In this document: in pieces, positions 4,263 through 32,000 of the stretch
How positions within the stretch are numbered: the stretch's first letter is position 1
How the letters are laid out: each line of letters begins with the position of its first letter
DNA from: an uncultured Lentisphaeria bacterium
GTDB lineage: Bacteria; Verrucomicrobiota; Lentisphaeria; JABSQK01; JAJFLO01
Direction of reading: 5' to 3'
NCBI GenBank assembly: GCA_951812855.1
Contig: OX638337.1
Span: forward strand, 1,530,001-1,562,000
DNA length: 32,000 bases
Program-made: the position numbers and the translations under genes
Notes under the pieces: model-generated
What the model saw: only the letters and a program-made list of their open reading frames with translations
Databases searched by the model: none
Told to the model about the DNA's origin: nothing

Positions 4263-6500
4263 TCAGCTTAATTCCAACACCGACTTCACAATAGCATTCG
4301 CTGTAATTCCAAAATGCTCCCATGTTTCCATATGCCCTTCAGATGGTGCTATTCTCGGGTCAGTAATACCAATATGTCCCAGCGGAAGTTTCTCCCCGGA
4401 CACAGCAACACCTGATGAAACCACACCTGCAAAACCCCTAAGTCCCACTCTCGCGTCGGCGATGAGGCCATCTTCGACAGTGACAATTCCCCCTGAATAG
4501 GTAGAAAACAGGGTGAGCAATTTACTTTCAGAGATTGGTAAACCATTAATGATATGAACATCTGTTTTAACCCCTTTTTTATTAAGCTCAAAGGATGCCT
4601 GGTCTGCCAAAAAAGCGGGTGCACCGATTACAAGAATTGCTCTCTCTGCCCCGGGGAACTTCCTGAATTCAGTTATTTCTTCCCAGCTATCAGTATTTGA
4701 CCATAACGCTCCACTGCCATCTTGTTTTTCTAAAATGGGTAAATTGTCTCTGGGGATACCAATAATATGACCACCATAATGTGCGGCCAGATCCCGAACT
4801 GCAATAAAGGCAGAAATAGCATCCGCAGGGGCATAAAACCGGTGCAGATAAGGCAGGTATCCAAGTGCTAATGTGATCCAGTCCAAACTCCAGCCTGAAA
4901 AATGATCCCTGCCTGTACATGACCCCACATGTGATAAATGAAACGTTACGTTCAGTCCTTCATTAATACCGGTTAAATTCCGTTGGTAACGCCACAGTTC
5001 GAATCCCTCTCTGGCTATTCCTTCAAAAAAAGCAGCAAAGGTAGAAAAAACATTCAGCTGTGGATGATTATCTCCATAAGCAAGGCCGTTAGCCATCAAT
5101 GCAGAAACCTGTTCCTGAATACTCATCTCAAATTGATGATTGGCTTGTAAAAATCCCCGTGCTTTTGCCAGTTTTGTCGACGGATCAAGATCACAACTAA
5201 CAACAAACATATTTTCGGGATAAATTTCTGCAACTGCGGCGTAACCAACCTCCACTCCTGCTCTTGCACTAATAACCTTACCGGTTTCAGGTAATTTTAA
5301 TGATGAAACAAAATCGTCATCCAGTATGAGATTAGGCGTTCCCGGTTGTGGTCGGGCTTGAGTTCTAACCCTTCGTTTTGGTTTTAAACTGGAGTTCTCA
5401 AGTGCCATTTTTTGCTTACTGCTTAACTGCAGCATCGGGTTGCCCAGTACCTGATTCACATCACGCCCTTTCATATGACCGTCATGATGCCCTGCTCCAC
5501 CCGGTAAACTATTAACCAGAAATATGCATTCTAACATTGATTCCAGATCTCTATAACTCATCAGTGATCCGGGAATCCAAACTCTCGTATCGAGAGGAAC
5601 ACTATGTTTATCAGCAAAGGAATTAACCGGTGCAATTATCCCATGATTATCTGCAAATTCTCTAATGGTCTGATGATTTCCTGCAGGATATATCAGATTG
5701 GGTTTACCGGACTGGGCCAGCTTAAATCCTTCCCGATATGCATCAAATAATATCTTACTTTTATGCAGAGACGGAATTTCAATAATTGTAATGCCCATTG
5801 ATTCTATTATTTTTCGTGGATCCTTTGCCATGATACTGTGTGTTGATCCCGAGAGCTGAATTCCATTACGGTGCATCACAAATGTTGTCGGTGCTTCATG
5901 CAGTGATGCTCCTATAAATCCATTCAAAGCCTGACCGGAAATCCAACCAGCATCACCACAATGCGTAATGACCCAGGCACCATCATCATTTATTGCTTTT
6001 TTAGAAAGGGCCAGACCAACCGCAACGGGTATCATAACACCCAATCTGCCTCCATTTAACTCAGTGCCGCCGGGAACCCAGGAAACATGACCGGGAAAGT
6101 CAATCCCGCGACGAAAACCATTTATGACATCATCTTTGTCCAGAAAACCCAGTGCAGCGAGGCTCGAGTAATAGCCAATACTGGTATGAGCATGTTCAAT
6201 TGTATAAAACGTACGCTTCTGATCCGTTACTGCAAGAGTTAATAACAATGCAGAGATGAGATCAAGACCTCCTCCAAGATGGTCAAGTTCATTTATTTTA
6301 GAAAGTGATGCCAAAGAACGAATCGCAATTGATGCTGCTTCAATCTCCAAGGCTTCAAGCGTGAAGACATCGTCTTCTGTTAATCCACTGTATTTTGAGA
6401 TATCAAAATGTAATGGGATTACCTCAGAATCAAATGATGGTCCCAAGTATTGTGATGCTGAAAGTAATTCGCTGTTTATGTCACGTTGACTGTGATTCAT
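4263..6500 (-). CDS. Transketolase-superfamily thiamine-diphosphate enzyme (fused N- and C-terminal modules, divergent)
   Basis: 745 aa. HLGGGLDLISALL (TPP-binding His region) and THCGDAGWISGQALNGF...MHRNGIQLSG (GDG-x-N TPP/metal motif variant). The C-terminal half resembles the pyrimidine-binding and C-terminal TK domains. The exact enzyme cannot be assigned. Confidence 0.55.
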   Translation of the reverse strand: MNHSQRDINSELLSASQYLGPSFDSEVIPLHFDISKYSGLTEDDVFTLEALEIEAASIAIRSLASLSKINELDHLGGGLDLISALLLTLAVTDQKRTFYTIEHAHTSIGYYSSLAALGFLDKDDVINGFRRGIDFPGHVSWVPGGTELNGGRLGVMIPVAVGLALSKKAINDDGAWVITHCGDAGWISGQALNGFIGASLHEAPTTFVMHRNGIQLSGSTHSIMAKDPRKIIESMGITIIEIPSLHKSKILFDAYREGFKLAQSGKPNLIYPAGNHQTIREFADNHGIIAPVNSFADKHSVPLDTRVWIPGSLMSYRDLESMLECIFLVNSLPGGAGHHDGHMKGRDVNQVLGNPMLQLSSKQKMALENSSLKPKRRVRTQARPQPGTPNLILDDDFVSSLKLPETGKVISARAGVEVGYAAVAEIYPENMFVVSCDLDPSTKLAKARGFLQANHQFEMSIQEQVSALMANGLAYGDNHPQLNVFSTFAAFFEGIAREGFELWRYQRNLTGINEGLNVTFHLSHVGSCTGRDHFSGWSLDWITLALGYLPYLHRFYAPADAISAFIAVRDLAAHYGGHIIGIPRDNLPILEKQDGSGALWSNTDSWEEITEFRKFPGAERAILVIGAPAFLADQASFELNKKGVKTDVHIINGLPISESKLLTLFSTYSGGIVTVEDGLIADARVGLRGFAGVVSSGVAVSGEKLPLGHIGITDPRIAPSEGHMETWEHFGITANAIVKSVLELS

Positions 6501-6650
6501 AATCCGTTCTCCTGAGCTTTTGACAAATGTTTATTTGGAATGTCCCACATTTGAGCAACTCATATGAACCTGCAATTATATGATTTGCGATTATAAAAAG
6601 ATCTTTGCAAGAAGTTCACAAAATAAATAATAATGGTTATATATCAAGTA

Positions 6651-6667
6651 TTAACAGTCGCTGTTAA
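6651..6667. promoter_or_regulatory. Palindromic operator candidate in a divergent intergenic region
   Basis: ttaacag-tcg-ctgttaa: 7-nt inverted arms with a 3-nt spacer, in the 355-nt gap between divergent genes 4263..6500(-) and 6856..7323(+). Confidence 0.2.
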
Positions 6668-6855
6668 CTGTTTGTAACTGGATTTACAGACGTAAAAAAA
6701 ACTCGATGCCATAGAGTAGATAATGAATTGAAAAAATCAAGAAAAAAGGTGTCGAAAGAGTTTTTCCCGGTACATTGACAACATCAGTATTTCAATTAAC
6801 CTTTAGACTCTTAAATATATCAAACCTTTAACCTGAGAATAAGGAAGGATTATCA

Positions 6856-7323
6856 GTGAAGAAATTTAACTTAATGATCATGATTATCAGTCTTTGTATG
6901 ATATCTGCGACAGACTTATATGCACAAAATGAAATGGCAGACCAGGATCAGCAACAAAAGATAATTAAAGTTTGTTCTCTCAACAGCATAGAGGCCAACC
7001 AGGAGTTTCAACGAAATGTACAATTGCTGCGTGCACAACGTCAAAAAGTAATAGAACTAAAAGCTGAATTCGATACCACCAAAAAGAAAAAGGCGAAAAA
7101 GAATATTCAAAAAGAACTTGATGACCTCCTCTTAAAGCTTAATGAAAATAACCAGACGATGTTCAAGACCTACGGCTTTTCATTAACGAGAAATTACACA
7201 CAAATTGTAGAACAATCACATGTTTATATGTTGGTTTCGGATGTTGAAGCAGATAAATTCAATAAACTGCAAAGTGAAAGTACAGGTTCTGACTCAGAGG
7301 ATAACGAAGAACAGGGTCACTGA
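6856..7323 (+). CDS. Secreted coiled-coil protein (possibly OmpH/Skp-like), function unknown
   Basis: 155 aa. N-terminal signal peptide MKKFNLMIMIISLCMISATDLYA, a Lys/Glu/Gln-rich helical core and an acidic tail. GGAAGG lies upstream of the GTG start. Confidence 0.5.
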   Translation: MKKFNLMIMIISLCMISATDLYAQNEMADQDQQQKIIKVCSLNSIEANQEFQRNVQLLRAQRQKVIELKAEFDTTKKKKAKKNIQKELDDLLLKLNENNQTMFKTYGFSLTRNYTQIVEQSHVYMLVSDVEADKFNKLQSESTGSDSEDNEEQGH

Positions 7324-7573
7324 ATACTATAAAAATTATAAATTGATCTTTTAATTTTATACGATACGTTACTCCGGTTACTCAGTGATTTCGGGAAATT
7401 TGATCGTACAACACTGTAATTTGTTTATATTCAAAAAGTTGTAACAGAGATTGCGGCGAGTTCAGCTGGACAGAAATACAATATTTTACCAGTCGGAAAC
7501 TTCCATTTAACGCATTGAGCAAAGACGGGCTTAACTATAATTTGGGCAGCAGTTTAAACAGTGTTCTGAGCAA

Positions 7574-10237
7574 ATGAACAATAACAAACAGTTGGAAACA
7601 GATCTTGAAACTGAAGAATGGCTCAATTCTCTGGAATGGGTTATTAAACATGGTGGTAACAAAAGAACCCTTAATTTACTCAGACAGTTACAGACTCATG
7701 CACAGAATAAAGGCGTTGAGTTTCCGTTTACTGCCAATACTCCCTACATCAATACAATCCCTATTGAAAAACAACCTCCATTCCCCGGGAACAGAAATTT
7801 AGAACGACGAATAAAGAGTATCGTTCGATGGAATGCAATGGCAATGGTCGTAAGAGCAAATAAATTGTCGGACGTCGGCGGTCATATATCAACCTACGCC
7901 TCATCAGCAACATTATTTGAAATAGGATTTAATCATTTCTTCAAAGGCAAGAGTGATGATTATGATGGTGATTTAGTCTACTTTCAGGGCCATGCATCAC
8001 CCGGTATTTATGCCAGAGCATTTGTTGAAGGCAGATTAAGTAAAGAAAAGCTCGAAAATTTTCGACGTGAACTAAAATCAGGGGGTGGATTATCCTCATA
8101 CCCGCATCCATGGCTGATGCCGGATTTTTGGCAGTTTCCAACTGTGTCAATGGGGTTGGGACCCATTTGTGCTATTTACCAGGCCAGATTTATGAGATAT
8201 CTCGAAGACCGCAGTTTAAAATCACATCGTAACGGGAGAGTCTGGGCATTTCTCGGAGATGGAGAAACTGATGAACCTGAGTCTTTGGGTGCGATTACAC
8301 TCGCTTCCAGAGAAAAATTAGATAACCTCATTTTCGTAATAAATTGTAACCTTCAACGCCTGGATGGCCCTGTAAGGGGTAACGGCAAAATAATTCAGGA
8401 ACTTGAATCTGTTTTCCGGGGAGCCGGGTGGAATGTAATCAAGGTCATTTGGGGTGATGATTGGGATCCGTTGTTAAAACATGAAGATGCAAATAAGCTT
8501 ATTGAACGAATGGATGAAGTTGTCGACGGACAATACCAGAAATATACCGTTGAATCAGGAGAATACATACGCGATCATTTCTTTGGCAAACATCCCGACC
8601 TTTTAAAAATGGTTGAACATTTAACTGACCAACAGATTCAACATATGAGACGAGGTGGCCATGACCCGGAGAAAGTATATGCTGCATACAATGCTGCAGT
8701 TGAGCATACAGGATCTCCCACTGTTATTCTGGCGAAAACAATCAAAGGATATGGACTTGGGGAGGCAGGTGAAGGGAAAAATATAACTCACCAGCAGAAA
8801 AAATTAAACGAAGAAGAATTATCTCGATTTCGAACACGATTCGGGATACCAATCTCTGATGAAGACGTTGCCCAGGCACCATTCTACGTTCCTCCTGAAA
8901 ATAGCGAAGAAATAAAGTATATACATAAAAGAAGAAGTGCGTTAAACGGCTATCTTCCCAATCGTCAAACTCGAACAAAACCGCTGGCAGTACCTGACGA
9001 AAAACTGTTTAATGAATTCAACGGGGGAACAGGTGAACGCGAAATTTCTACAACATTTGCTTTTGTTCGAATATTGTCAAAATTGCTTAAGGATGATAAA
9101 ATCGGGAATTTAATTGTTCCAATTATTCCGGATGAAGCCAGAACATTCGGTATGGAAGCATTGTTCAGGCAATTTGGAATCTATTCTCACGTTGGTCAAC
9201 TGTACAAACCTGTAGATTCAGATCAATTGCTGTATTATAAAGAAGCAGCTGATGGTCAAATATTTGAAGAAGGTATTACTGAAGCGGGATCTATGTCAAC
9301 ATTTATCGCCGCTGGTACAGCCTATGCAAATCATGGTGTAAATACCATCCCTTTTTTCATATACTACTCAATGTTCGGCTTTCAGCGTATCGGCGATCTC
9401 GTATGGGCTGCTGCTGATAGTCGCAGTCGAGGTTTTATGTTAGGAGGAACTGCCGGCCGAACAACTTTAAACGGAGAGGGACTCCAACATCAGGACGGCC
9501 ATAGTCATATACTCTTTACTGTCGTGCCGAGCGTAATCACTTATGACCCTGCATTTGCTTATGAACTCGGGATAATCATTCGGGATGGTATAAAAAGAAT
9601 GTATCATGAACAACAAAGTATATTTTATTATATCACTGTTGGAAATGAGCCATATCCAATGCCGGCAATGCCAAATAATTCAGCTGAAGGAATTATTAAG
9701 GGCATCTACAAATTTAAAACCTCCAACCTGAAAAAAAGTGAACACAAAGCACATTTGTTCGGAAGTGGTTCAATAATGAATCTTGTTTTAGAAGCCCAGA
9801 CTGTTCTGGAAGAAAAATATAAAGTGTCTGCAGATGTATGGAGTGTTACAAGTTACAATGAATTAAGAAGGGACGCACAAGAAGTACAACGTTGGAATAT
9901 GCTTAACCCGCGGAAAACAAAAAAGAAACCCTTTATAAGTGCTGCATTGGAACAAGAATCAGGAGTGTTTGTTGCTGCATCAGATTACATGAAAATATTA
10001 CCAAATTCAATCGCCCAATGGATTCCGGGAACCTATGTTTCTCTTGGAACAGATGGCTTTGGCAGAAGTGAGACGCGTGAAGCATTGCGAGATCATTTTG
10101 AAATTGATGCACGTTATATCGTTCTTGCAACACTCACGGCACTTATGGATGAGGGTAAGATCAAACCTGTTGCGGTAGGTAAAGCTATTAAAGATTTGAA
10201 GATTAATCCAGCCAAGTTAAATCCTTTAACAACCTAG
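7574..10237 (+). CDS. aceE: Pyruvate dehydrogenase E1 component, homodimeric type
   Basis: 887 aa. GGHISTYASSATLFEIGFNHFF, YFQGHASPGIYARAF and GDGETDEPES are diagnostic AceE motifs. It is followed by an E2 gene. Confidence 0.93.
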   Translation: MNNNKQLETDLETEEWLNSLEWVIKHGGNKRTLNLLRQLQTHAQNKGVEFPFTANTPYINTIPIEKQPPFPGNRNLERRIKSIVRWNAMAMVVRANKLSDVGGHISTYASSATLFEIGFNHFFKGKSDDYDGDLVYFQGHASPGIYARAFVEGRLSKEKLENFRRELKSGGGLSSYPHPWLMPDFWQFPTVSMGLGPICAIYQARFMRYLEDRSLKSHRNGRVWAFLGDGETDEPESLGAITLASREKLDNLIFVINCNLQRLDGPVRGNGKIIQELESVFRGAGWNVIKVIWGDDWDPLLKHEDANKLIERMDEVVDGQYQKYTVESGEYIRDHFFGKHPDLLKMVEHLTDQQIQHMRRGGHDPEKVYAAYNAAVEHTGSPTVILAKTIKGYGLGEAGEGKNITHQQKKLNEEELSRFRTRFGIPISDEDVAQAPFYVPPENSEEIKYIHKRRSALNGYLPNRQTRTKPLAVPDEKLFNEFNGGTGEREISTTFAFVRILSKLLKDDKIGNLIVPIIPDEARTFGMEALFRQFGIYSHVGQLYKPVDSDQLLYYKEAADGQIFEEGITEAGSMSTFIAAGTAYANHGVNTIPFFIYYSMFGFQRIGDLVWAAADSRSRGFMLGGTAGRTTLNGEGLQHQDGHSHILFTVVPSVITYDPAFAYELGIIIRDGIKRMYHEQQSIFYYITVGNEPYPMPAMPNNSAEGIIKGIYKFKTSNLKKSEHKAHLFGSGSIMNLVLEAQTVLEEKYKVSADVWSVTSYNELRRDAQEVQRWNMLNPRKTKKKPFISAALEQESGVFVAASDYMKILPNSIAQWIPGTYVSLGTDGFGRSETREALRDHFEIDARYIVLATLTALMDEGKIKPVAVGKAIKDLKINPAKLNPLTT

Positions 10238-19026: not shown

Positions 19027-19400
19027 TTAGACAGATTTTTGGTCACGATAATTGAATCTGAATTCACACTCTTTCAAATGTAAATAAAATGTGTTTTTAT
19101 GAATGCCTCTAAATTTAGACAATCTGGATTTGGCAACACCCAAAAAATTTTCAATCCCATTTATATGGTTGTTACCTTTAGCAAATTCATTGTTCATATG
19201 TTTAACCCGACAGTGCTTTTTATAACGGAAATTCACAAGACCATAAGTTGTATTAAACCTTAAATTATTAGATGAACGCTACCGGCATATTTGTAGTCAT
19301 GGGATTAAAAAACTTGCCTCGGGTATAATTGTCATGGTAATTTGTGCCTTTTTGATAATGTCGCCGGACCATTTCTTCGGCTATTATAATCGACGTGCAG
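19027..19400 (-). mobile_element. IS1595-family (ISXO2-like DDE) transposase remnant, C-terminal part, frameshifted
   Basis: GLVNFRYKKHCRVKHMNNEFAKGNNHINGIENFLGVAKSRLSKFRGIHKNTFYLHLKECEFRFNYRDQ is the conserved IS1595 C-terminus. Upstream, in another frame, STDATCTSIIIAEEMVRRHYQKGTNYHDNYTRG resembles the preceding DDE segment. No N-terminal zinc ribbon is present. Confidence 0.7.
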
Positions 19401-19576
19401 GTGGCGTCAGTGGAATTTACAAACCATAGCTTAACTTATCATGCGGTTGAATTATCACTCAGTCCGATAATTCTGTCCCGGATCACCTCGTTGTCATTCT
19501 TCATGCGAAAGTCAGCAGGATAACGGTTTATTTCAGGACGTTTACCGGCAATCTCTTATGGGTAGAATCTCTTTGG

Positions 19577-19920
19577 CTATATTAATGCTATATTTCTGGC
19601 ATCATCAATTCTCGGGTGATGTGTAGAGGAAAATTCTAAGTCCAGGTATTCTAATGCTTGTACAACTGATTTTGGTGCAACGCCTTTTAATTCAGTATAT
19701 GATTTTTGAGATTTATATGGTTGAAGAATGAGGTTGAATTCAGTAAATCAAATCGTTTACATTCAGACTTAATTTGTGTTACATCATAGATTTCCCGGGA
19801 ACAAAGGATAAATTCTTCGGTACCTGTCCATTCTAAAAAGCGGTTAAATTCAACATCAAAAAAGCCTGTTTTATCAATATCTTCCTGGCTGATTGTAGTA
19901 AGTTCCTGACACTATTTAAA
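19577..19920 (-). pseudogene. ERI-1/KapD-like DEDDh 3'-5' exonuclease, N-terminally truncated with one frameshift
   Basis: The minus strand reads CQELTTISQEDIDKTGFFDVEFNRFLEWTGTEEFILCSREIYDVTQIKSECKRFDLL...FFNHINLKNHI, then shifts frame to ELKGVAPKSVVQALEYLDLEFSSTHHPRIDDARNIALI*. The Exo I (DxE) segment is absent. Confidence 0.55.
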
Positions 19921-23956: not shown

Positions 23957-24260
23957 GTTGGAAATAGTCATTTGACAATTCTGCAATTAAGTCCGGGTTC
24001 GATGCTTTTTTAAGCAATAAATGTCATCCCGCACCCGAGAATTAACAGGATTATGATCTCGCCGATAACCCAGGATTTCCTTTTGATTTTTAAGAACATC
24101 AGGAACAAATAATTTAGAGCCAATCGCAACACCTTTGGTGGCAAATCTAACCCGGAGCATCATTCGATTTGACCATTGGAGCTTAAATCCAACAAGAAAA
24201 CACTCAGGGAAAAGTTGATATTTTTTATTTTCCCGATTTAATTGTGGTTAATTTAGTGTC

Positions 24261-24817
24261 TTCTCAAAGGGGTGTCTACTATTTTTTGCTGTATAATTCA
24301 ATCTCTTTTTTTAATTTTTTAATTCTTTTAGTATTCTCTCTCTTTTTGTCCGTAAAGCATCCCAGTCTACTTCCCAAACAGTGCCATCAGAGAAACGAGC
24401 CTTCACTATACCAGCAATGCCTGTGGCAAATTTTAAGCCTCCGTCTGCAGTGTCTAACCATACTTCATATCCATTTCCATCTGGCGGGATATCTTCAATG
24501 GAAAATCCATTTATGCCATTAATATGTTCATTCCATATATCATAACTAACAAAACCGATTGCTAACGCTACAATGGTTTTTTCACTTGTATTTTTATATT
24601 CAGCGTAATGTATAATTCCTTCTTTTATGAAAAGGTCGCCTTCTTGATAAGCAGCTGTATATGATGTAATTTTTAAAGGTGCCCGGCTTTGTTCAATTAT
24701 TTTTGTAACCGGTTCGATTGCCCATGCATAGGATGCCGTCATTATGGCAATTAACAGAACAGCGATATTTGTTTTCATAATTTCTCCTTATTTGTTGTTT
24801 GTTGGATTTAAGCGATT
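24261..24817 (-). repeat. Direct repeat copy A (cassette carrying the 155-aa secreted protein)
   Basis: Aligns with 27921..28490 at an offset of 3660 nt. 24264..24335 is a 72-nt block identical to 27924..27995 (47 nt non-coding plus the last codons). The signal-peptide end is also near-identical, while the middle is diverged. Confidence 0.9.
24311..24778 (-). CDS. Secreted 155-aa protein of unknown function, paralog 1
   Basis: Sec-type signal peptide MKTNIAVLLIAIMTASYAWA|IEP and AAGGAG upstream of the ATG. 125/155 residues are identical to 27971..28438 by hand alignment. Confidence 0.8.
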   Translation of the reverse strand: MKTNIAVLLIAIMTASYAWAIEPVTKIIEQSRAPLKITSYTAAYQEGDLFIKEGIIHYAEYKNTSEKTIVALAIGFVSYDIWNEHINGINGFSIEDIPPDGNGYEVWLDTADGGLKFATGIAGIVKARFSDGTVWEVDWDALRTKRERILKELKN

Positions 24818-24891: not shown

Positions 24892-25659
24892 TCATGCCGC
24901 TAAATCTTCCCTTATATCTTCTCGTTCAGACCATTTAACCGGCTTGAGATTATAGTTTTTCAAAGCGGATATAGTCGATTCTGAAACGCCTGTATCCGTA
25001 TCATTTAAAACGGCATAAAGTTGTGTGTCCGGCTCTCTTGTCTCTCGTGTATCCAGCCATTTGAACATTAAATTTTCGGCAGTGTTTTTTTGGGGACTGT
25101 TAATTGCCTGCACAATACGTTCGGGTTGTTGACGTGATTTTGGAATAATAAAATCAAATAAATGGTCGTATCCGCTTTTGCCAGTAAATTTAATCTTTGG
25201 CGTATAACGAATCTCCACCGAACCCAGCCACTGTGTGACATCTTCATAGAATAAGCTGGCGACATGCGGTGAGGCCAGATAAAACAAATCATTGATTGCA
25301 AGCATGGCCTGGACAAGATTATGTTTTTTCAGAGAGAAATTTTCTGATGTCGCCTTGACCAATAATTGATTGTTGTCCAGTTCCACACCAAATCTGGTCA
25401 AAGTAGTTTTCAGTATTGCCTGGCGTTTTTTGCTTTCTGGAAAACAGCCGGAAAGCCTTAAATCGTTGATGATGTACCCGTCATCTGTCAACAGGTATCC
25501 ACCATTTTCCTTGCACACATAAAATTGCAAACAATCATTATGACGATCAAGGTGTGGGGTGGTTACCTGCACACAGTCGCTGCCAATCCGGCGTAGCACT
25601 GTTTTATCTTTCAGCCAGACGATATAGCGATCAAGCAATGTTTGGATGTCGTCTATCAT
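24892..25659 (-). CDS. DUF1828 (N-terminal) + DUF1829 (C-terminal)-type protein, function unknown
   Basis: 255 aa. [16 protein letters not shown]...[12 protein letters not shown] and [18 protein letters not shown]...LNDTD match my memory of the DUF1828/DUF1829 architecture. Its start overlaps the stop of the upstream ORF by 4 nt. Confidence 0.65.
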
Positions 25660-26099
25660 GCGAATAGCCCCCCATCAATAACAGGTTTTTTAACAATAGC
25701 ACAATAATTCATAAAGGCATCAAGCAAGCCTAAAATATCGCTATCGCTGATTCCCGCAAGTTCGCTCGGCAATGGACATGCCCACTTATCACCAAGGCCT
25801 TCCCGATATAAATGGAGATGAGGACATTCAAGCTCTTCGCCATCAGGATTGCGGTGGGGTGGTCCTGCCAAATCCAGACGCACCAGAATGATTGTTTGTC
25901 GTGCTCTGGTCTGAAAAGTATTTTTCTTAAGTGAAATCCGACCCCTGGTAATATCAAGAGAAAATTCTTCCCTTTTATCAAGTGAATGTAATGGCAGGCG
26001 TAATGAGCCTCCCAGGCTGGGAAAATCAAAGCGACCTGTCGAACCAAAATAGTGCTTTTCCATGGCTAACAGGGCATCGGCTTTATGTTGGGTTAACAA
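25656..26099 (-). CDS. Small conserved-looking hypothetical protein (147 aa), partner of the DUF1828/1829 gene
   Basis: ORF with TTG start (AGGAGAG about 12 nt upstream) or internal ATG. Distinctive motif [31 protein letters not shown]-type overlap with the downstream gene. No family assigned with confidence. Confidence 0.6.
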
Positions 26100-26153: not shown

Positions 26154-26206
26154 TCTCGCGGCCTTGGACACCACGGGTTTTTGCCTAATCATACCAGGCC
26201 GCGAGA
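26154..26206. other. Strong GC-rich hairpin in the 300-nt non-coding leader of the DUF pair
   Basis: tctcgcggccttgg (26154-26167) pairs with ccaggccgcgaga (26194-26206): 13 bp with one bulged T and a 26-nt loop. Confidence 0.6.
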
Positions 26207-26408
26207 CCAGCAATATCGCACTCCTGTGCCCGTTTGGTTAATAAAGGTCTTAAGCTATCAAGCAGGACTTTTTCTTTCTGGCCTTTTGCTTTCCAGCCAA
26301 GCTATCCGCTAATCAGGCCTTAAAATAAGTGGTTTTAATGGATGCTATCGCAAATAAAACGCTTTTCTACTCTCATTAATGATTTTTGATGTCAGAGTTT
26401 ATCCGCTA

Positions 26409-26468
26409 TTTTAACGACCGAACTCAGCGGCTGCCGTCAGGCAATTCCGCTGGAGTGCCTTGTTAGGA
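26409..26468 (-). other. attC-like recombination site candidate 1 (60 bp)
   Basis: Minus strand: TCCTAAC-AAGGCA-CTCCAGCGG-(16 nt)-CCGCTGAG-TTCGGTC-GTTAAAA. This gives an inverse-core ..YTAAC, an imperfect inner palindrome with one extra base, and a core GTTRRR. The RDD stop codon TAA lies inside the TAAC. Confidence 0.55.
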
Positions 26469-26912
26469 ATTTTCTGACTTTATAACATAAGTGCCTGCCA
26501 TTATATCGTGAAGCCCTTGCTTCTTTTTTGTCCATCCGACCATCATACACCCGATACCGAGAATTAACCCCGAAAGGAGCAGAGCGAAATATCGCCCAGT
26601 AGCTCTGCCAAATGAAATGCGATTTCCTTTCTCATTAACAACCTTCAATCCAACCGCCTTTTTTCCTACAGATGCCTGCCATTTTGAAGAATGTAAGACT
26701 GCAAGATATACCCACCAAACAATCAGGGAGTGCATAGACTCTACGATTACTTGCTCTATTTCATCAGTTGCGGGGGTCACAGAACGAGATAGAAATGAAA
26801 TAAGCAAAACTGGGATAATCAGAACTACTGAATCAATAAAGCAAGCTCCAACTCGTATCCAGAAGCCCCCAAACTGGATTGCTTCGTTAATTTCATGAGT
26901 TGGTTGATTCAT
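26463..26912 (-). CDS. RDD-family membrane protein
   Basis: 149 aa. GGFWIRVGACFIDSVVL, SVGKKAVGLKVVNEKGNRISFGRATGRYF and KKQGLHDIMAGTYVI are the RDD-family signature with three TM spans. Confidence 0.8.
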   Translation of the reverse strand: MNQPTHEINEAIQFGGFWIRVGACFIDSVVLIIPVLLISFLSRSVTPATDEIEQVIVESMHSLIVWWVYLAVLHSSKWQASVGKKAVGLKVVNEKGNRISFGRATGRYFALLLSGLILGIGCMMVGWTKKKQGLHDIMAGTYVIKSENS

Positions 26913-26932: not shown

Positions 26933-27060
26933 TACCTAATGCCAAGCTCAGCGGCAGCTAACCTCCCAGAAACTCCATAGAAACGGCCAAGTTTGAATTC
27001 TACAATAAATTCAAAAAAACTAACGGGTCAGCCATCCGCTGAAGTGCTTTGTTAGAAGGT
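26933..27060 (-). other. attC-like recombination site candidate 2 (128 bp)
   Basis: Minus strand: ACCTTCTAAC-AAAGCA-CTTCAGCGG-(~85 nt)-CCGCTGAG-CTTGGCA-TTAGGTA. It has the same conserved arms as site 1 with a longer variable centre, and starts 5 nt after the TIR-like gene stop. Confidence 0.55.
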
Positions 27061-27065
27061 TTATA

Positions 27066-27464
27066 TTATACATCATTCACTGCTTTTTTAATGGAGTCTT
27101 CAGCAAATGACATAGCCCAAGAAGTATCAACGCCATATAAATTGTCAGGTGTTGTATTTGTGCTACTCGTTTTTACAGTCACGATTTTTTTATTTAATTC
27201 AACTGCCTTATCGATTTCCCATTCTACCCAATCGCTTTTATGAGTTTTTTCTCCAACAATGCAGAGAAAGTAAGTTGCATTATTAATTTTGGCAGATATT
27301 GCTCGTTTAATTACTGTCGCGTTGGTACTTTTGATGGATACATCTGCAGAATGGTCATGAAAACTAAAATCAAATGTTCCGTTCGCATCCCATGCCTTCA
27401 ATAAATTTTTGTAGTGTTTGTCGTTATTGTAATCATAACTTATAAATATCTTTTTCTTAGCCAT
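27066..27464 (-). CDS. TIR-like protein (MTH538/DUF1863, ThsB-like)
   Basis: 132 aa. KKIFISYDYNND...YFLCIVGEKTHKSDWVEWEIDKAVELNKKIV matches the MTH538 TIR-like pattern (FISY..D, vliG..T..S.WV.WEI) including the conserved Glu. The start is 2 nt after the SLATT-like stop. Confidence 0.7.
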   Translation of the reverse strand: MAKKKIFISYDYNNDKHYKNLLKAWDANGTFDFSFHDHSADVSIKSTNATVIKRAISAKINNATYFLCIVGEKTHKSDWVEWEIDKAVELNKKIVTVKTSSTNTTPDNLYGVDTSWAMSFAEDSIKKAVNDV

Positions 27465-27466
27465 TT

Positions 27467-27886
27467 TTATTTATCCTTTATTTGTTTAATATAAATATTC
27501 CAATTGGAATTTTCCTTTGAAATTAAAGCCTCTGTAGTAGCAACAAGCATTTTAAAAGAATCTTCGCCATCATACGGCCTGGACTCAGTTTGGTATAAAT
27601 ATTTATGATGTTTAAGGCTTTCTGATGTGGTTCTATATTGTATCCATATCTCTTGAAATTTGTTTATTGATATTATTCCAGCAACAATCGCAATACAAAT
27701 ACCTAGTAGAGCAACGATAATTTGGTTCGTTTCAGAAGCATAACAAGCCAAAAAAGGAATTGTTGCAGCTGCTGATATTTCAAAAATACGCAGAGACTTA
27801 AACCAAAGTTGGGCACGGTTGCTTTTTTTGCTATACCAATCAATTTGGTCATCTATTCTCTGTTTAATGTATTCTTCCTGCTCCAT
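27467..27886 (-). CDS. DUF4231/SLATT-family two-transmembrane protein
   Basis: 139 aa. N-terminal helix with DWYSKKS, two hydrophobic spans (ISAAATIPFLACYA; IVALLGICIAIVAGIISI), then WIQYRTTSESLKHHKYLY. This topology and motif order is typical of DUF4231/SLATT. Confidence 0.65.
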   Translation of the reverse strand: MEQEEYIKQRIDDQIDWYSKKSNRAQLWFKSLRIFEISAAATIPFLACYASETNQIIVALLGICIAIVAGIISINKFQEIWIQYRTTSESLKHHKYLYQTESRPYDGEDSFKMLVATTEALISKENSNWNIYIKQIKDK

Positions 27887-27903
27887 TTTTTTTCTTACTA
27901 TTG

Positions 27904-27912
27904 CCTTCTAAC
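27904..27912 (-). other. Cassette-start core GTTAGAAGG (inverted copy of the R''-like end of attC-like site 2)
   Basis: The plus strand reads ccttctaac here and gttagaagg at 27051-27059, so a perfect 9-nt inverted repeat brackets the SLATT/TIR pair. Confidence 0.6.
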
Positions 27913-27920
27913 ATTTAATA

Positions 27921-28490
27921 TTTTCAAAGGGGTGTCTACTATTTTTTGCTGTATAATTCAATCTCTTTTTTTAATTTTTTAATTCTTTTAGTATTAACCC
28001 TATTTTTGACGATAAAGCATCATAGTCTGCTTCCCAAACAGTTCCATCAGAGAAACGAACCTTCACTATACCAGCAATGCCTGTGGTAAATGCGAAGCCT
28101 CCGTCTGCAGGGTCTAACCATACTCCATTTCCATTTCCATCCGGCGGGATATCTTCAATAGAATATCTAGGCATGCTATTAATATGTTTATTCCAGATAT
28201 CAAAACTAAAAAAAGCGATTATTAACGCTACAATGGTTTTTCCACTTGTATTTTTATATTCAGCGTAATGTCTAATTCCTTCTTTTGTGAAAAGGTCGCC
28301 TTCTTGATAAGCAGCTGTATATGATGTAATTTTTAAAGGGGCCCCGCTCTGTTCAACTATTTTTGTAACCGGTTCGATTGCCCGGGCATAGGATGCCGTC
28401 ATTATGGCAATTAACAGAACAGCGATATTTGTTTTCATACTTTCTCCTTAATTATTAGAGTTGGATTTGGTGTTGTTGCATTTAAGCGAC
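27921..28490 (-). repeat. Direct repeat copy B (cassette carrying the 155-aa secreted protein)
   Basis: See copy A. The 5' flanks share tcgcttaaat(g/c)caacaa and contain indels. Confidence 0.9.
27971..28438 (-). CDS. Secreted 155-aa protein of unknown function, paralog 2
   Basis: Signal peptide MKTNIAVLLIAIMTASYARA|IEP and AAGGAG RBS. 30 substitutions and no indels relative to paralog 1. Confidence 0.8.
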   Translation of the reverse strand: MKTNIAVLLIAIMTASYARAIEPVTKIVEQSGAPLKITSYTAAYQEGDLFTKEGIRHYAEYKNTSGKTIVALIIAFFSFDIWNKHINSMPRYSIEDIPPDGNGNGVWLDPADGGFAFTTGIAGIVKVRFSDGTVWEADYDALSSKIGLILKELKN

Positions 28491-28562: not shown

Positions 28563-28724
28563 TCAAGACTTAATTTTCTTTTTATTCAATGCATCGACTA
28601 AATCATTTAAATACTTTTTAGTTTCCTCATCTGTTTTCCTATTTTCTATCTCAATAATAATAGGATCATATTCTCTGTTATTATCGACATATACTTTTTT
28701 ACTTTTCCATTTACAAAGGGGCAT
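28563..28724 (-). CDS. Small ORF (53 aa), hypothetical; below the track's size cut-off
   Basis: My translation: MPLCKWKSKKVYVDNNREYDPIIIEIENRKTDEETKKYLNDLVDALNKKKIKS*. It lies on the same strand as the array and begins right after a copy of the boundary motif. It is followed by an A/T hairpin (28503-28514 / 28551-28561). No clear RBS. Confidence 0.3.
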   Translation of the reverse strand: MPLCKWKSKKVYVDNNREYDPIIIEIENRKTDEETKKYLNDLVDALNKKKIKS

Positions 28725-28727
28725 TTA

Positions 28728-28750
28728 CGAAGGGGTGTCCGCTATTTTAA
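28728..28750 (-). repeat. Third copy of the cassette-boundary motif AAAATAG(YR)RGACACCCCTTYG
   Basis: The plus strand cgaaggggtgtccgctattttaa compares with caaaggggtgtctactatttt at 24265-24285 and 27925-27945. The half-motif tccgctattttaac also occurs at 26402-26415, where it forms the R'-like end of attC-like site 1. Confidence 0.7.
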
Positions 28751-28759
28751 AAAAGAGAA

Positions 28760-28987
28760 ATGAAGAACAATGGAATAGAATTACCCGAAAAGATAGTCTC
28801 GAATCACTACGTCGATATGGAGACTCTGCAAAAACAAATATATGAAAATTATCGACAGAATATTTCGCACGACATTGTTCTTGATGGGAATGCTAGAGTC
28901 GATAACGCCGAAAACATTCTAAAGCTCTTGATGCGACTTGTTCAATGTGTATCAAACCCGGTGTTGGTTGACGAGTCCTACTTATAA
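28760..28987 (+). CDS. Hypothetical 75-aa protein (only plus-strand ORF in the accessory block)
   Basis: ORF with AAGAGAA immediately before the ATG. Its 3' end overlaps the methyltransferase 3' end convergently by 6 nt. No recognisable motif. Confidence 0.35.
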   Translation: MKNNGIELPEKIVSNHYVDMETLQKQIYENYRQNISHDIVLDGNARVDNAENILKLLMRLVQCVSNPVLVDESYL

Positions 28988-30154
28988 AGATGTCTCACAG
29001 ACAGAGCGCATTATATCGTTAGCTATATGTTCACCAATAAACTTTGCCACTTTTGGCGGAATAGCATTACCAATCAGTGTTGCCGAGAGCTGTAAATTGT
29101 CTTCAGGATAAAAAACGTAACTTTTTGGAAAGGTTTGCAACATAGCGCCTTCCCTTATCGAAAGTGCCCGATTCTGGTTGACATCAAAATGTCCAAAGCG
29201 CCCGTTAGTAATCGATAGAAATTTTGTTGTGATCGTCGGAGAAACACAATCTTCAGCCATACGGGTATAGGTATCGCTAAAAGAAGGATTTTTCATTTTA
29301 TTATGGCAATACAAAGACAGATCACCGTAAGGAGTGTTCTTCAAATAGCCGTTTGTCTCACCAGGGATGGCAGAAGAAATGCGTTTCAAATTAAGATCGC
29401 TGAGCGAGCGCGTTCGATGATTACGTATTCTCGGATGGGCTTGTCCGGCGGTCAATGGCGGCAGACCACCAATAACATCGCCTACGGTTCGAGGTTTTGC
29501 TCTCTTGTTTTTTTCAGGAATAGCAGGAGACATTGAAAATTTCTTTTTTCTATAACCCATAATAATGGTTCTTCTTCTGTTTTGAGCAACGCCAAAATTC
29601 TTTACATTAATTATTTTCACATCAACCATATACTTCAATGAATCAAGTTCATCTGTAAAACATTTCAGTATTTCAATATCCTGATCTCGTTTACAGATAC
29701 CTTCAACATTTTCACAGACAACTGCGTCAGGCCGCAATGCTTTGATAACACCCAATGAGGCTGGCAATAAGTCTTTATCCCTGCTTCGGTCAGAGTATCT
29801 TTTGCGCGACAATTCAATTTTAGTAATTCTTGTAAATGGCTGACACGGCGCACATATCGCCAGCAAAAGAATATCACCATTTTTTTTTGCATAACCGCGT
29901 TTTTTTAAACATTGTTTCAGTGCCTTAATAGCAATCTCCTGCTGTCCTTCCGGATAGTTTTCCGTATTCTGAAACAAATCAAACGCCATAAAGTCGGGCA
30001 CCGAGCCATCACAATTTTTATTCTGGCTATACGTTTTTCTGCATCTTTCTTCTTTATCAACACCAGCAACAACCACATAGCCTGCATTCGCAAGACCACA
30101 GGTCATTCCACCAGCGCCACAAAACAAATCGATCACAAATTTCCTCATAGTCAC
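28982..30154 (-). CDS. dcm: DNA (cytosine-5) methyltransferase
   Basis: 390 aa with all C5-MTase motifs: I DLFCGAGG, IV APCQPFT, VI ENV, VIII QNRRR, IX REGAMLQTFP, X GNAIPP. Start is GTG 30154 (overlapping the upstream stop) or ATG 30148. Confidence 0.93.
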   Translation of the reverse strand: MTMRKFVIDLFCGAGGMTCGLANAGYVVVAGVDKEERCRKTYSQNKNCDGSVPDFMAFDLFQNTENYPEGQQEIAIKALKQCLKKRGYAKKNGDILLLAICAPCQPFTRITKIELSRKRYSDRSRDKDLLPASLGVIKALRPDAVVCENVEGICKRDQDIEILKCFTDELDSLKYMVDVKIINVKNFGVAQNRRRTIIMGYRKKKFSMSPAIPEKNKRAKPRTVGDVIGGLPPLTAGQAHPRIRNHRTRSLSDLNLKRISSAIPGETNGYLKNTPYGDLSLYCHNKMKNPSFSDTYTRMAEDCVSPTITTKFLSITNGRFGHFDVNQNRALSIREGAMLQTFPKSYVFYPEDNLQLSATLIGNAIPPKVAKFIGEHIANDIMRSVCETSL

Positions 30155-32000
30155 GATCCGTCTTCGCCACCTAACACATTAATGATTGAAAGTATATAAG
30201 GTGCCATCGCCTGCGAACTTTTTTCTGCCTGTGAATCTGCATCGTCTGGATTTTCTGTTTCATCATAATGTCTATACACAGCCAAAGTTAAAAATCCGAG
30301 GCATATTCTAAAGCGATTTTCATTCAATTTTATGGCCGCTTCATCGTTTCCTAATCTCATTTCTTCTAAACGTTCATGGTCTCTATTTACATAAACCATT
30401 AGCCCTTCTTCTGAGTTAATGACTTTTGCTCCAGATTTTTCATCGAAACCGTATTCATCCCAATTAGATTTTTCTGCCCATTGCGTAGGGTCGGCTATTT
30501 GTGGCTTCTCTGTGTTTTTTGTATCAGATTTTGTTGTGCCCCCAGATTTTGCAGGATTTTCTTCGGGTGTGATCTTTATCTTTATAGGGACTGTTAAAGG
30601 AACAGGTCGCGGGCCGTGATCGTCAAAACCAATTTCAAAATCGATAACATCGCCAACTTGTTTATGTTTTGGAACCGAAACAGTAAATGTTGCCGTTCCA
30701 TTGCGCAGGCTGGCGCTTCTTGGCAGATCTGCACTCGTCAATGAACACTTCACCCAGCCAGGGCTGTTGGTTCTGGAAAGATAATCATCGGCGGCATCTG
30801 TGCCACATTTTATTTTTCGGTTTGCATTGACGGGAACTTCTTTTAAAAAATATTTATTTTGCCCTTCTTTGACAGGAGTCAAATTCAGAGGGTTTAAAAA
30901 AGTAGGGAATTTCTTTCCTTCATACAACTCTGTTCCTCTTGGAGTTTTTATCGTTTTAATCGCCGCATTTCCAAAACCAAGAAGTTCTTTTATCATAGGA
31001 TCTCGTGCAATAAAATCGTTAAGCATTTTTTGGGTTTCTTCATCATTTTCAATTTTTTCTTTTGCCCGCCGCAGGCGAATAATTTTTGCGTATTGTTTTA
31101 GTTTAGAATCGTCTTTCAAGCGATCTTTTACCAATTTTTTCAACTCTCGGGATAGGTTGTTAATTATCATCCGCTCACGATCACCCATAAATATTGTTAA
31201 GGCATCTCTGTTCATTTCCTCACATTGAACGTTAATGATAAGGTGATTTTGAAGATCTCCGAGCTTTACGCTGTTCAGCAAGCCCGCATTTTCTGTTGCG
31301 TGAGTTTGGCCGTTGATAGTGTAAAATACACGCTTCCTGCTGTTCTCCATATAGTTGGGAAGTTTGCTAACGCCTGTAGCGATAATTCTAACTTTTCCCA
31401 ATTCAGGATTGGATAAGTCATCTTCGACCAAATGAACAAATTCAGTGGTTCCTTTTGCTGGAGCCTCAGTTGGAATTTCCGGATCTTGATTAGAAGGATC
31501 TGCAAACTCGGCATTGAGTATCACACTCATACCGCTAAATGTGCGATCTGCGATACCTTGTGCTCTGCGTTTTCCTTTCCCTTGTGTTAGTTTGGCATCA
31601 AAATCATATAAGCGAATTGGCAATGCACAATCCAAAAGATTCAGATTCAGCGCGTAATAAAGCCCGAAATCAACACCATGCGCGCCATCTCCTATGTCGT
31701 AATCAAACAATCTTACAACCGAACCTTGTGCTATCAATCCAATTTCCTTATCACCAAAAGACGGTATTGTGGAGGCTTTGAATTGTGGAATTTTGTCATC
31801 AGGTGCCAAATATTCGACGGTTGGCAGTTTTTTACCCTCCTTTATTTTCGGGACGCGAATCAAACTCCAGCCCCAGCTATCAGAATTTCGTTTTTTGCTG
31901 ACTATCAGTTTATAGTGCGGCTTGTCCGATTCTGAGCAAAACCGGATTGAACCGGTTGACCCCATATTGAACTTTCCCTGAACAAAGCCAATACCTTCTT
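30151..32000 (-). CDS. Large protein, N-terminus off-window; possible GHKL/MORC-like ATPase with a long uncharacterised C-terminal region
   Basis: The track starts at Met 31965, but my translation of 32000-31966 gives EGIGFVQGKFN with no stop, so the frame is open to the window edge. GKFNMGSTGS resembles the GxFGxG ATP-lid box of HATPase_c_3/MORC proteins. The remaining ~600 aa have no motif I recognise. Its stop is within 2-4 nt of the dcm start. Confidence 0.5.
   Translation of the reverse strand, partial: EGIGFVQGKFNMGSTGSIRFCSESDKPHYKLIVSKKRNSDSWGWSLIRVPKIKEGKKLPTVEYLAPDDKIPQFKASTIPSFGDKEIGLIAQGSVVRLFDYDIGDGAHGVDFGLYYALNLNLLDCALPIRLYDFDAKLTQGKGKRRAQGIADRTFSGMSVILNAEFADPSNQDPEIPTEAPAKGTTEFVHLVEDDLSNPELGKVRIIATGVSKLPNYMENSRKRVFYTINGQTHATENAGLLNSVKLGDLQNHLIINVQCEEMNRDALTIFMGDRERMIINNLSRELKKLVKDRLKDDSKLKQYAKIIRLRRAKEKIENDEETQKMLNDFIARDPMIKELLGFGNAAIKTIKTPRGTELYEGKKFPTFLNPLNLTPVKEGQNKYFLKEVPVNANRKIKCGTDAADDYLSRTNSPGWVKCSLTSADLPRSASLRNGTATFTVSVPKHKQVGDVIDFEIGFDDHGPRPVPLTVPIKIKITPEENPAKSGGTTKSDTKNTEKPQIADPTQWAEKSNWDEYGFDEKSGAKVINSEEGLMVYVNRDHERLEEMRLGNDEAAIKLNENRFRICLGFLTLAVYRHYDETENPDDADSQAEKSSQAMAPYILSIINVLGGEDGS

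Follow-up and report, generated by a model that had tools for sequence, protein, structure and literature searches.

A probable type VII Thoeris gene pair on an integron cassette in the defence island of an uncultured low-GC bacterium

A probable type VII Thoeris pair and its cassette

Two small adjacent genes in the 32-kb stretch of DNA analyzed here (the window) most probably constitute a type VII Thoeris system, in which a ThsH SLATT effector is paired with a ThsB TIR protein, carried on an integron gene cassette of ~980 bp that comprises the two genes and an attC site. Operons of TIR and SLATT genes were described as type VII Thoeris, with ThsH as the effector, by Yirmiya et al. (bioRxiv, December 2025, 10.64898/2025.12.03.692087), and three of the six such operons in their test set defended against phage in a heterologous host. 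The pair in the window adds a divergent and very compact member to this already described type. A preliminary description of the same DNA had taken the two-gene architecture to be uncharacterized, a claim that no longer holds given the published operons and the 50% identity between the window TIR and a validated ThsB. The two genes are as follows:

27467..27886, minus strand: thsH-like gene, 139 aa, SLATT/DUF4231 with two hydrophobic helices, predicted membrane effector
27066..27464, minus strand: thsB-like gene, 132 aa, TIR with the invariant glutamate E83, predicted phage sensor and cADPR synthase

The sequence and the ORF listing bear out the arrangement first described, two minus-strand genes separated by 2 nt, and the gap from the SLATT gene to the TIR gene occupies 27465-27466. 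Both ORFs are intact, with all invariant residues kept.

The TIR protein

The TIR protein matches Pfam ThsB_TIR (PF08937) with an E-value of 7e-21 and also matches many of the PADLOC ThsB models (best E 2e-19). Within an alignment of 28 homologues the glutamate of the WEI motif, E83, is invariant, and a profile search of the PDB aligns it with the YEI-motif glutamate of the solved ThsB structure 6LHY. The family is strongly conserved, having a mean column identity of 81% over the 28 sequences from many phyla, and TIR proteins from different phyla are 70–80% identical to each other. The AlphaFold model of the window protein (pLDDT 86, pTM 0.82) finds its best PDB matches in the ThsB structures 9b7d, 8fz9, 8wcf, 8v6t and 6lhy. 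Both the assignment of a ThsB-like TIR with a WEI glutamate and the fold expected for it were therefore correct in the preliminary description.

For comparison with the published systems, TIR domain sequences were taken from Table S1 of Yirmiya et al. (10.64898/2025.12.03.692087). The TIR domain of the validated ThsB of B. licheniformis SCCB 37 shares 50% identity (E 1e-38) with the window TIR, and a type VIII TIR that the authors list in the same cluster shares 69%. The validated Alteromonadales TIR is distant, with 29% identity over 66 residues, and comparison by eye showed no obvious similarity to the validated Pseudohongiella TIR. A phage origin was considered and dropped, viral contigs holding only five distant relatives of the TIR.

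The SLATT protein

The product of the upstream gene matches Pfam DUF4231 (E 8e-23), Pfam SLATT_1 (E 1e-15) and NCBIfam SLATT_1 (E 1.5e-35). Residues W17, Y18, W81, Y84, R85, E89 and L91 are invariant among 36 aligned homologues; these include the W..YR...E.L motif residues on which the original DUF4231/SLATT assignment had drawn, and together with the family matches they uphold that assignment of a two-TM protein. The hydrophobic segments are centred near residues 42 and 64, and the AlphaFold model (pLDDT 86) consists of four helices. As a proxy for validated ThsH in sequence comparison we used the SLATT adjoining a Bacillus altitudinis ThsB (locus L069), which is 39% identical to the window protein over the full length. 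The B. altitudinis ThsB has 75% identity to the validated B. licheniformis ThsB.

Neither by fold (Foldseek) nor by sequence (profile search) did the SLATT model have an analogue in the PDB, so for the pore mechanism we rely on the published prediction only. In PADLOC the TIR protein is recognized by ThsB models, and the SLATT protein gave no match to the PADLOC 2.0 models.

SLATT proteins with 64–71% identity to that of the window also exist at loci with no adjoining TIR gene (L001, at 6001-7971, L007 and L008). The L001 SLATT adjoins a TPR-S protein and has a pentapeptide-TIR protein at a distance of 4 kb, whereas those of L007 and L008 each adjoin a KTSC-domain gene, amid toxin-antitoxin genes.

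Gene order among relatives of the TIR

Gene neighbourhoods were compared in the 80 nearest genomic relatives of the window TIR. A short SLATT gene lies immediately upstream of the TIR gene in 21 of these, and wherever among them the short SLATT occurs the TIR gene is directly downstream (21/21 genomes), so that the pairing proposed from the window alone is syntenic at these loci. Spacing at the 21 loci ranges from -11 to +11 nt, an 8-nt overlap being the most frequent arrangement, and the window pair has the same SLATT-then-TIR order with near-zero spacing. In six of the 80 relatives the protein immediately upstream of the TIR is a longer SLATT-type protein (293–327 aa) with weak matches to SLATT profiles; the one of these scanned with Pfam, from L012, is a double SLATT (SLATT_3 and SLATT_1). 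Downstream of the TIR, ~28 of the 80 relatives carry a TPR-S protein of ~415 aa, which fits the published type VIII effector. No Macro domain was found among the 74 neighbouring proteins scanned with Pfam. The partners of this TIR clade are thus those of types VII and VIII only, which supports a cADPR signal without proving it.

Some loci of the same TIR clade look like a larger operon variant. In L012, L017, L028 and L022 the TIR is situated between a SLATT-type protein of ~320 aa and a TGT-like protein of ~330 aa, the latter confirmed or matched by size in L012, L017 and L028, while L030 and L040 carry the long SLATT only. A second TIR gene is often present ~2 kb downstream in the long-SLATT/TGT-like loci.

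Predicted signal and mechanism

Yirmiya et al. found that the TIRs of three defending type VII systems made canonical cADPR, and did so only after infection (10.64898/2025.12.03.692087). In the same report added cADPR, but not 2'cADPR or 3'cADPR, halted growth with two of the systems, from an Alteromonadales scaffold and from B. licheniformis; ThsH was proposed to oligomerise in the membrane on binding cADPR, and type VIII Thoeris was likewise reported to use cADPR. By analogy, phage infection would cause the TIR protein of the window to make a cyclic ADP-ribose from NAD+ as a signal, the likeliest product being canonical cADPR. This signal would bind the cytoplasmic part of the two-helix SLATT protein, which would then oligomerise and breach the membrane, so that the infected cell would be stopped before phage release. 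The roles given to the two proteins in the preliminary description, the TIR as sensor and signal generator and the SLATT as membrane effector, agree with the published type VII model.

The signal could in principle differ. Published type VII TIRs are spread over several unrelated clusters, some of which include type II (His-ADPR) TIRs (10.64898/2025.12.03.692087), and the signal is therefore not readable from the operon type alone; in addition, the window TIR is merely 50% identical to a validated cADPR producer. A Thoeris-like system in which this SLATT subfamily reads another molecule, be it 2'cADPR, 3'cADPR, His-ADPR or a new one, is nevertheless rather unlikely, as the three validated type VII TIRs made cADPR and the partners of the TIR clade, SLATT and TPR-S, both belong to cADPR types, with no Macro domain among the 74 proteins.

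Toxin-antitoxin cassettes are frequent in integron arrays, and some of the other loci encountered here carry PemK or YoeB/Phd genes. The tight coupling of the SLATT and TIR genes would also suit an addiction module of the toxin-antitoxin type, with a SLATT membrane toxin held in check by the TIR and the pair kept because its loss kills the cell. We regard this as highly improbable. A TIR with an invariant glutamate that is 70–80% identical across phyla fits an enzyme and not an antitoxin, the same TIR clade pairs with unrelated effectors, and homologous operons defended against phage.

Cassette boundaries and the attC-like site

The sequence GTTAGAAGG is present exactly twice in the window, at 27051-27059 on the plus strand and at 27904-27912 on the minus strand, on either side of the gene pair. 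The perfect inverted repeat of 9 nt noted in the preliminary description is exact and at the positions given there, but it is one nucleotide longer, its full extent being the 10-nt TGTTAGAAGG at 27050-27059 / 27904-27913. Inverted repeats of at least 10 nt arose in only 2 of 500 shuffled flank pairs. The cassette features at this locus are:

27904..27913, minus strand: 5' cassette boundary, G followed by TTAGAAGG, the R' half-site from integration, complementary to the cassette's own R''
26934..27059, minus strand: putative SLATT-TIR attC of ~126 nt, with R'' at 27051-27059, L'' at 27036-27050, L' at 26941-26954 and R' at 26934-26940
26409..26468, minus strand: RDD cassette attC of 60 nt with a canonical GTT, after the RDD-family gene at 26463-26912

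The closest relatives of the pair (88% identity for the SLATT, 91% for the TIR) are found on four contigs, L002 to L005. DNA homology to these copies begins exactly at the 27904..27913 boundary, at GTTAGAAGG, and in the alignment with the L002 copy it continues through CCTTCTAAC and ends in the attC. Because homology to the other copies starts at the repeat and ends in the attC, the two halves of the flanking repeat are the R' half-site and the R'' box that belong to the cassette itself and were separated when it integrated. No AAC, and hence no R'' box, was seen by eye in the ~130 nt upstream of the 5' boundary.

The attC-like element that had been noted at the end of the pair extends over 26934-27059 and carries an R'' box with the sequence CCTTCTAAC as well as a pair of L boxes (CAGCGG...CCGCTG). 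The R' box reads ATTAGGT, compared with the consensus GTTRRRY, and so has an A in place of the crossover G. The folding energy of the site is unexceptional (z -0.6). Its left arm aligns with the canonical attC of L002 and L003, and its right arm resembles, by eye, the right arm of the RDD cassette attC. The L-box pairs of the SLATT-TIR and RDD attC sites are the sole such pairs in the 32 kb, each with 0.01 expected by chance. A shorter attC of 42 nt, ending at GTTAGTT (~27018-27024), was also considered; the 126-nt version was preferred on account of its distal right arm, which matches the left arm as well as the RDD attC. Scans for attC sites over the whole window, using either minimum free energy or the energy of the arm duplex, failed to tell the known attC apart from chance hits within genes, and we therefore make no claim on further attC sites. 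The few attC examples differ greatly in their spacing.

Copies of the cassette in other genomes

The first cassette next to the integron integrase of contig L002 is this pair; the integrase is divergently oriented and matches TIGR02249 with a score of 426 bits against a cut-off of 265. L002 and L003 have a common canonical attC of 60 nt, and the two sequences part just after the GTTA of the R' box. Inspection by eye found the pair flanked by attC-like sequences in Colwellia, Oceanobacter and Thiobacillus, and probably also in a Desulfolunaceae MAG. The Colwellia pair carries a 9-nt flanking repeat and is enclosed by two attC-like sequences that are nearly identical. We conclude that the pair is a true integron cassette, since the unit recurs in unlike surroundings, has its breakpoints at the R' core and in one genome adjoins an integrase. 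The single two-gene cassette suggested by the preliminary description accordingly recurs as a unit with the same boundaries next to an integron integrase. Transfer as a cassette could account for TIR proteins being 70–80% identical in very different bacteria.

Genomic context of the cassette

The gene at 26463-26912 on the minus strand encodes an RDD-family membrane protein (Pfam RDD, E 1.5e-24) and forms a separate cassette; the attC that follows it at 26409..26468 places the SLATT-TIR pair in a short cassette array. The RDD protein also resembles the C-terminal region of PADLOC PD-T4-6 (E 2e-11). No tyrosine recombinase matching the L002 IntI was found in the window when ORFs of at least 50 aa were searched with phmmer. 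A sister genome (L089), reached through its 99% identical TIR, has the same island with 98.3% DNA identity, bounded by gmk (guanylate kinase) at one end and by lipoamide dehydrogenase and 2-oxoacid dehydrogenase E2 genes at the other, and no integrase is called there within 10 kb on either side of the TIR gene. The locus is thus a short cluster of cassettes within a defence island of the chromosome, and the sequence examined contains no integrase. Because neither the window nor the 20-kb sister-genome locus has an integrase platform, there is no integron Pc promoter either.

Two further gene pairs belong to the island:

24892-26099, minus strand: overlapping genes for a DUF6978 protein (147 aa) and a DUF1828/DUF1829 protein (255 aa), matching PADLOC PDC-M24A/B (E 2e-54 and 2e-106)
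28982-32000, minus strand: genes for a C5 cytosine methyltransferase (390 aa) and a large protein, overlapping by 4 nt

The DUF6978-DUF1828/DUF1829 pair is a putative second defence module of the island. The large partner of the C5 methyltransferase belongs to no Pfam family and measures 604 aa in the window, where it is cut by the window end, and 781 aa in L089. A 75-aa ORF at 28760-28987, on the strand opposite the C5 methyltransferase, is called in L089 too. The nine ORFs of the island at 24.3-32 kb, that is the pair and seven others, were scanned with Pfam and contained no SIR2, SLOG, Macro, TPR-S or CD-NTase/SMODS domain, in agreement with the earlier statement that the pair has no SIR2/SLOG or Macro ThsA.

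The island contains other repeated sequences. Two copies of a unit, at 24261-24815 and 27921-28489, have ~88–89% DNA identity, lie 3660 nt apart and bracket the PDC-M24 / RDD / SLATT-TIR block; the N-terminus of the 155-aa protein encoded by the unit is hydrophobic and resembles a signal peptide. In copy 1 the gene lies between the halves, 620 nt apart, of a perfect 15-nt inverted repeat, GCTTAAATCCAACAA (24181-24195 / 24799-24813), the core of which fits the attC R-box consensus (ATCCAAC / GTTGGAT). A 26-nt motif, ATTTTCAAAGGGGTGTCTACTATTTT, is found three times in the island (24260-24285, 27920-27945 and 28723-28748), and 13 nt of it, TAAAATAGCGGA on the minus strand, reappear directly after the RDD attC at ~26400-26412. 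The block of two cassettes seems to have been inserted next to this motif. Within the 360-nt non-coding gap from the RDD cassette to the DUF6978 gene, a hairpin at 26154-26206 has a G+C-rich stem of 13–14 bp (RNA fold -29.5 to -30.8 kcal/mol, z -4.3, plus strand) and could be a terminator or regulatory element. Elsewhere in the window, ~800 bp at 19027-19870 are missing from the 98–99% identical sister genome. A 69-aa ORF within this segment looks like the C-terminal end of an IS1595-family transposase, and the segment is probably a decayed insertion sequence.

Mobility and expression of the window copy

With an A for the crossover G in its attC, the cassette may no longer be mobile. A homologue of a defence system located outside integrons has been reported with a pseudo-attC that is mutated at the crossover point and probably non-recombinogenic (Kieffer et al. 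2025). One tentative history of the locus would be that a complete cADPR-type Thoeris travels as a sub-kilobase cassette, was left, along with the RDD cassette, at a simple GTT site that lacks an upstream attC, in a region of the chromosome having no integrase in the sequence examined, and was then fixed by the G-to-A change at the attC crossover. We put this forward as possible though doubtful; if true, it would provide an actual example of an ordinary defence island being seeded by integron cassettes.

A cassette deposited outside an integron might also be an inert passenger, promoterless and unexpressed, with no current function for the host. The lack of an integrase or Pc promoter in the window and in the 20-kb sister-genome locus would fit such a passenger, as would the mutated crossover base of the attC and the promoter and terminator scans near the cassette, which gave nothing above chance (the promoter scan dealt with sigma-70-type sites only). 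Still, both frames are intact with every invariant residue kept, the sister genome retains the same island at 98.3% DNA identity with a 99% identical TIR, and read-through from the upstream gene on the same strand is possible, in addition to any promoter of a kind other than the sigma-70-type sites scanned. An inert passenger is quite improbable, and the window copy of the Thoeris pair is probably expressed.

Comparison with known systems

With published type VII Thoeris the window pair shares the two-gene composition of a SLATT membrane protein and a ThsB-type TIR with a conserved glutamate. However, it comes from another host lineage (uncultured, ~38% GC), its TIR is distant from the two validated proteobacterial (E. 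coli-tested) TIRs, and it is located on an integron cassette, whereas the word ‘integron’ is absent from the type VII report (10.64898/2025.12.03.692087). Type VIII Thoeris (ThsB plus ThsI, a CMP hydrolase-TPR protein) is similar in that one of its TIRs is 69% identical to that of the window and that ~28 of the 80 relatives adjoin a TPR-S protein, yet the effector in the window is a SLATT protein and none of the nine island ORFs at 24.3-32 kb is a TPR-S protein. Types I and II also use a ThsB-family TIR as sensor and signal synthase, and the fold of the window TIR matches solved ThsB structures. Their effectors, ThsA with SIR2-SLOG and a Macro-TM protein respectively, are of kinds found in none of the island ORFs scanned with Pfam, and their published signals are 3'cADPR and His-ADPR, not cADPR (10.64898/2025.12.03.692087). 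CBASS systems with SLATT effectors also draw on this family of effector domains, for which oligomerisation in the membrane on binding a nucleotide signal is predicted, but the predicted signal generator in the window is a TIR and the neighbouring ORFs scanned contain no CD-NTase/SMODS.

Integron cassettes for phage defence (BRiCs) are established (Kieffer et al. 2025, Darracq et al. 2025, Getz et al. 2025), and two-gene integron cassettes with ThsB homologues have been described previously (Kieffer et al. 2025). The window cassette resembles BRiCs in being a compact defence system that starts with a TTRRRY-type end and finishes with an attC-like site, and one genome has it next to an integron integrase. 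The effector partner there (‘Tragantia’) is different, a protein of ~300 aa that was reported to be shorter than ThsA and to differ greatly from it in predicted fold, while the window cassette carries a type VII Thoeris pair in an array that has no integrase in the sequence examined.

What appears to be new is therefore only mildly so, namely that type VII Thoeris circulates as an integron cassette, here apparently stranded outside an integron platform. The finding opens no new mechanism and settles no standing question, and it adds a member from an uncultured low-GC bacterium. Type VII Thoeris moves between phyla as an integron cassette, which ties TIR signalling systems to the idea of integrons as a defence ‘biobank’.
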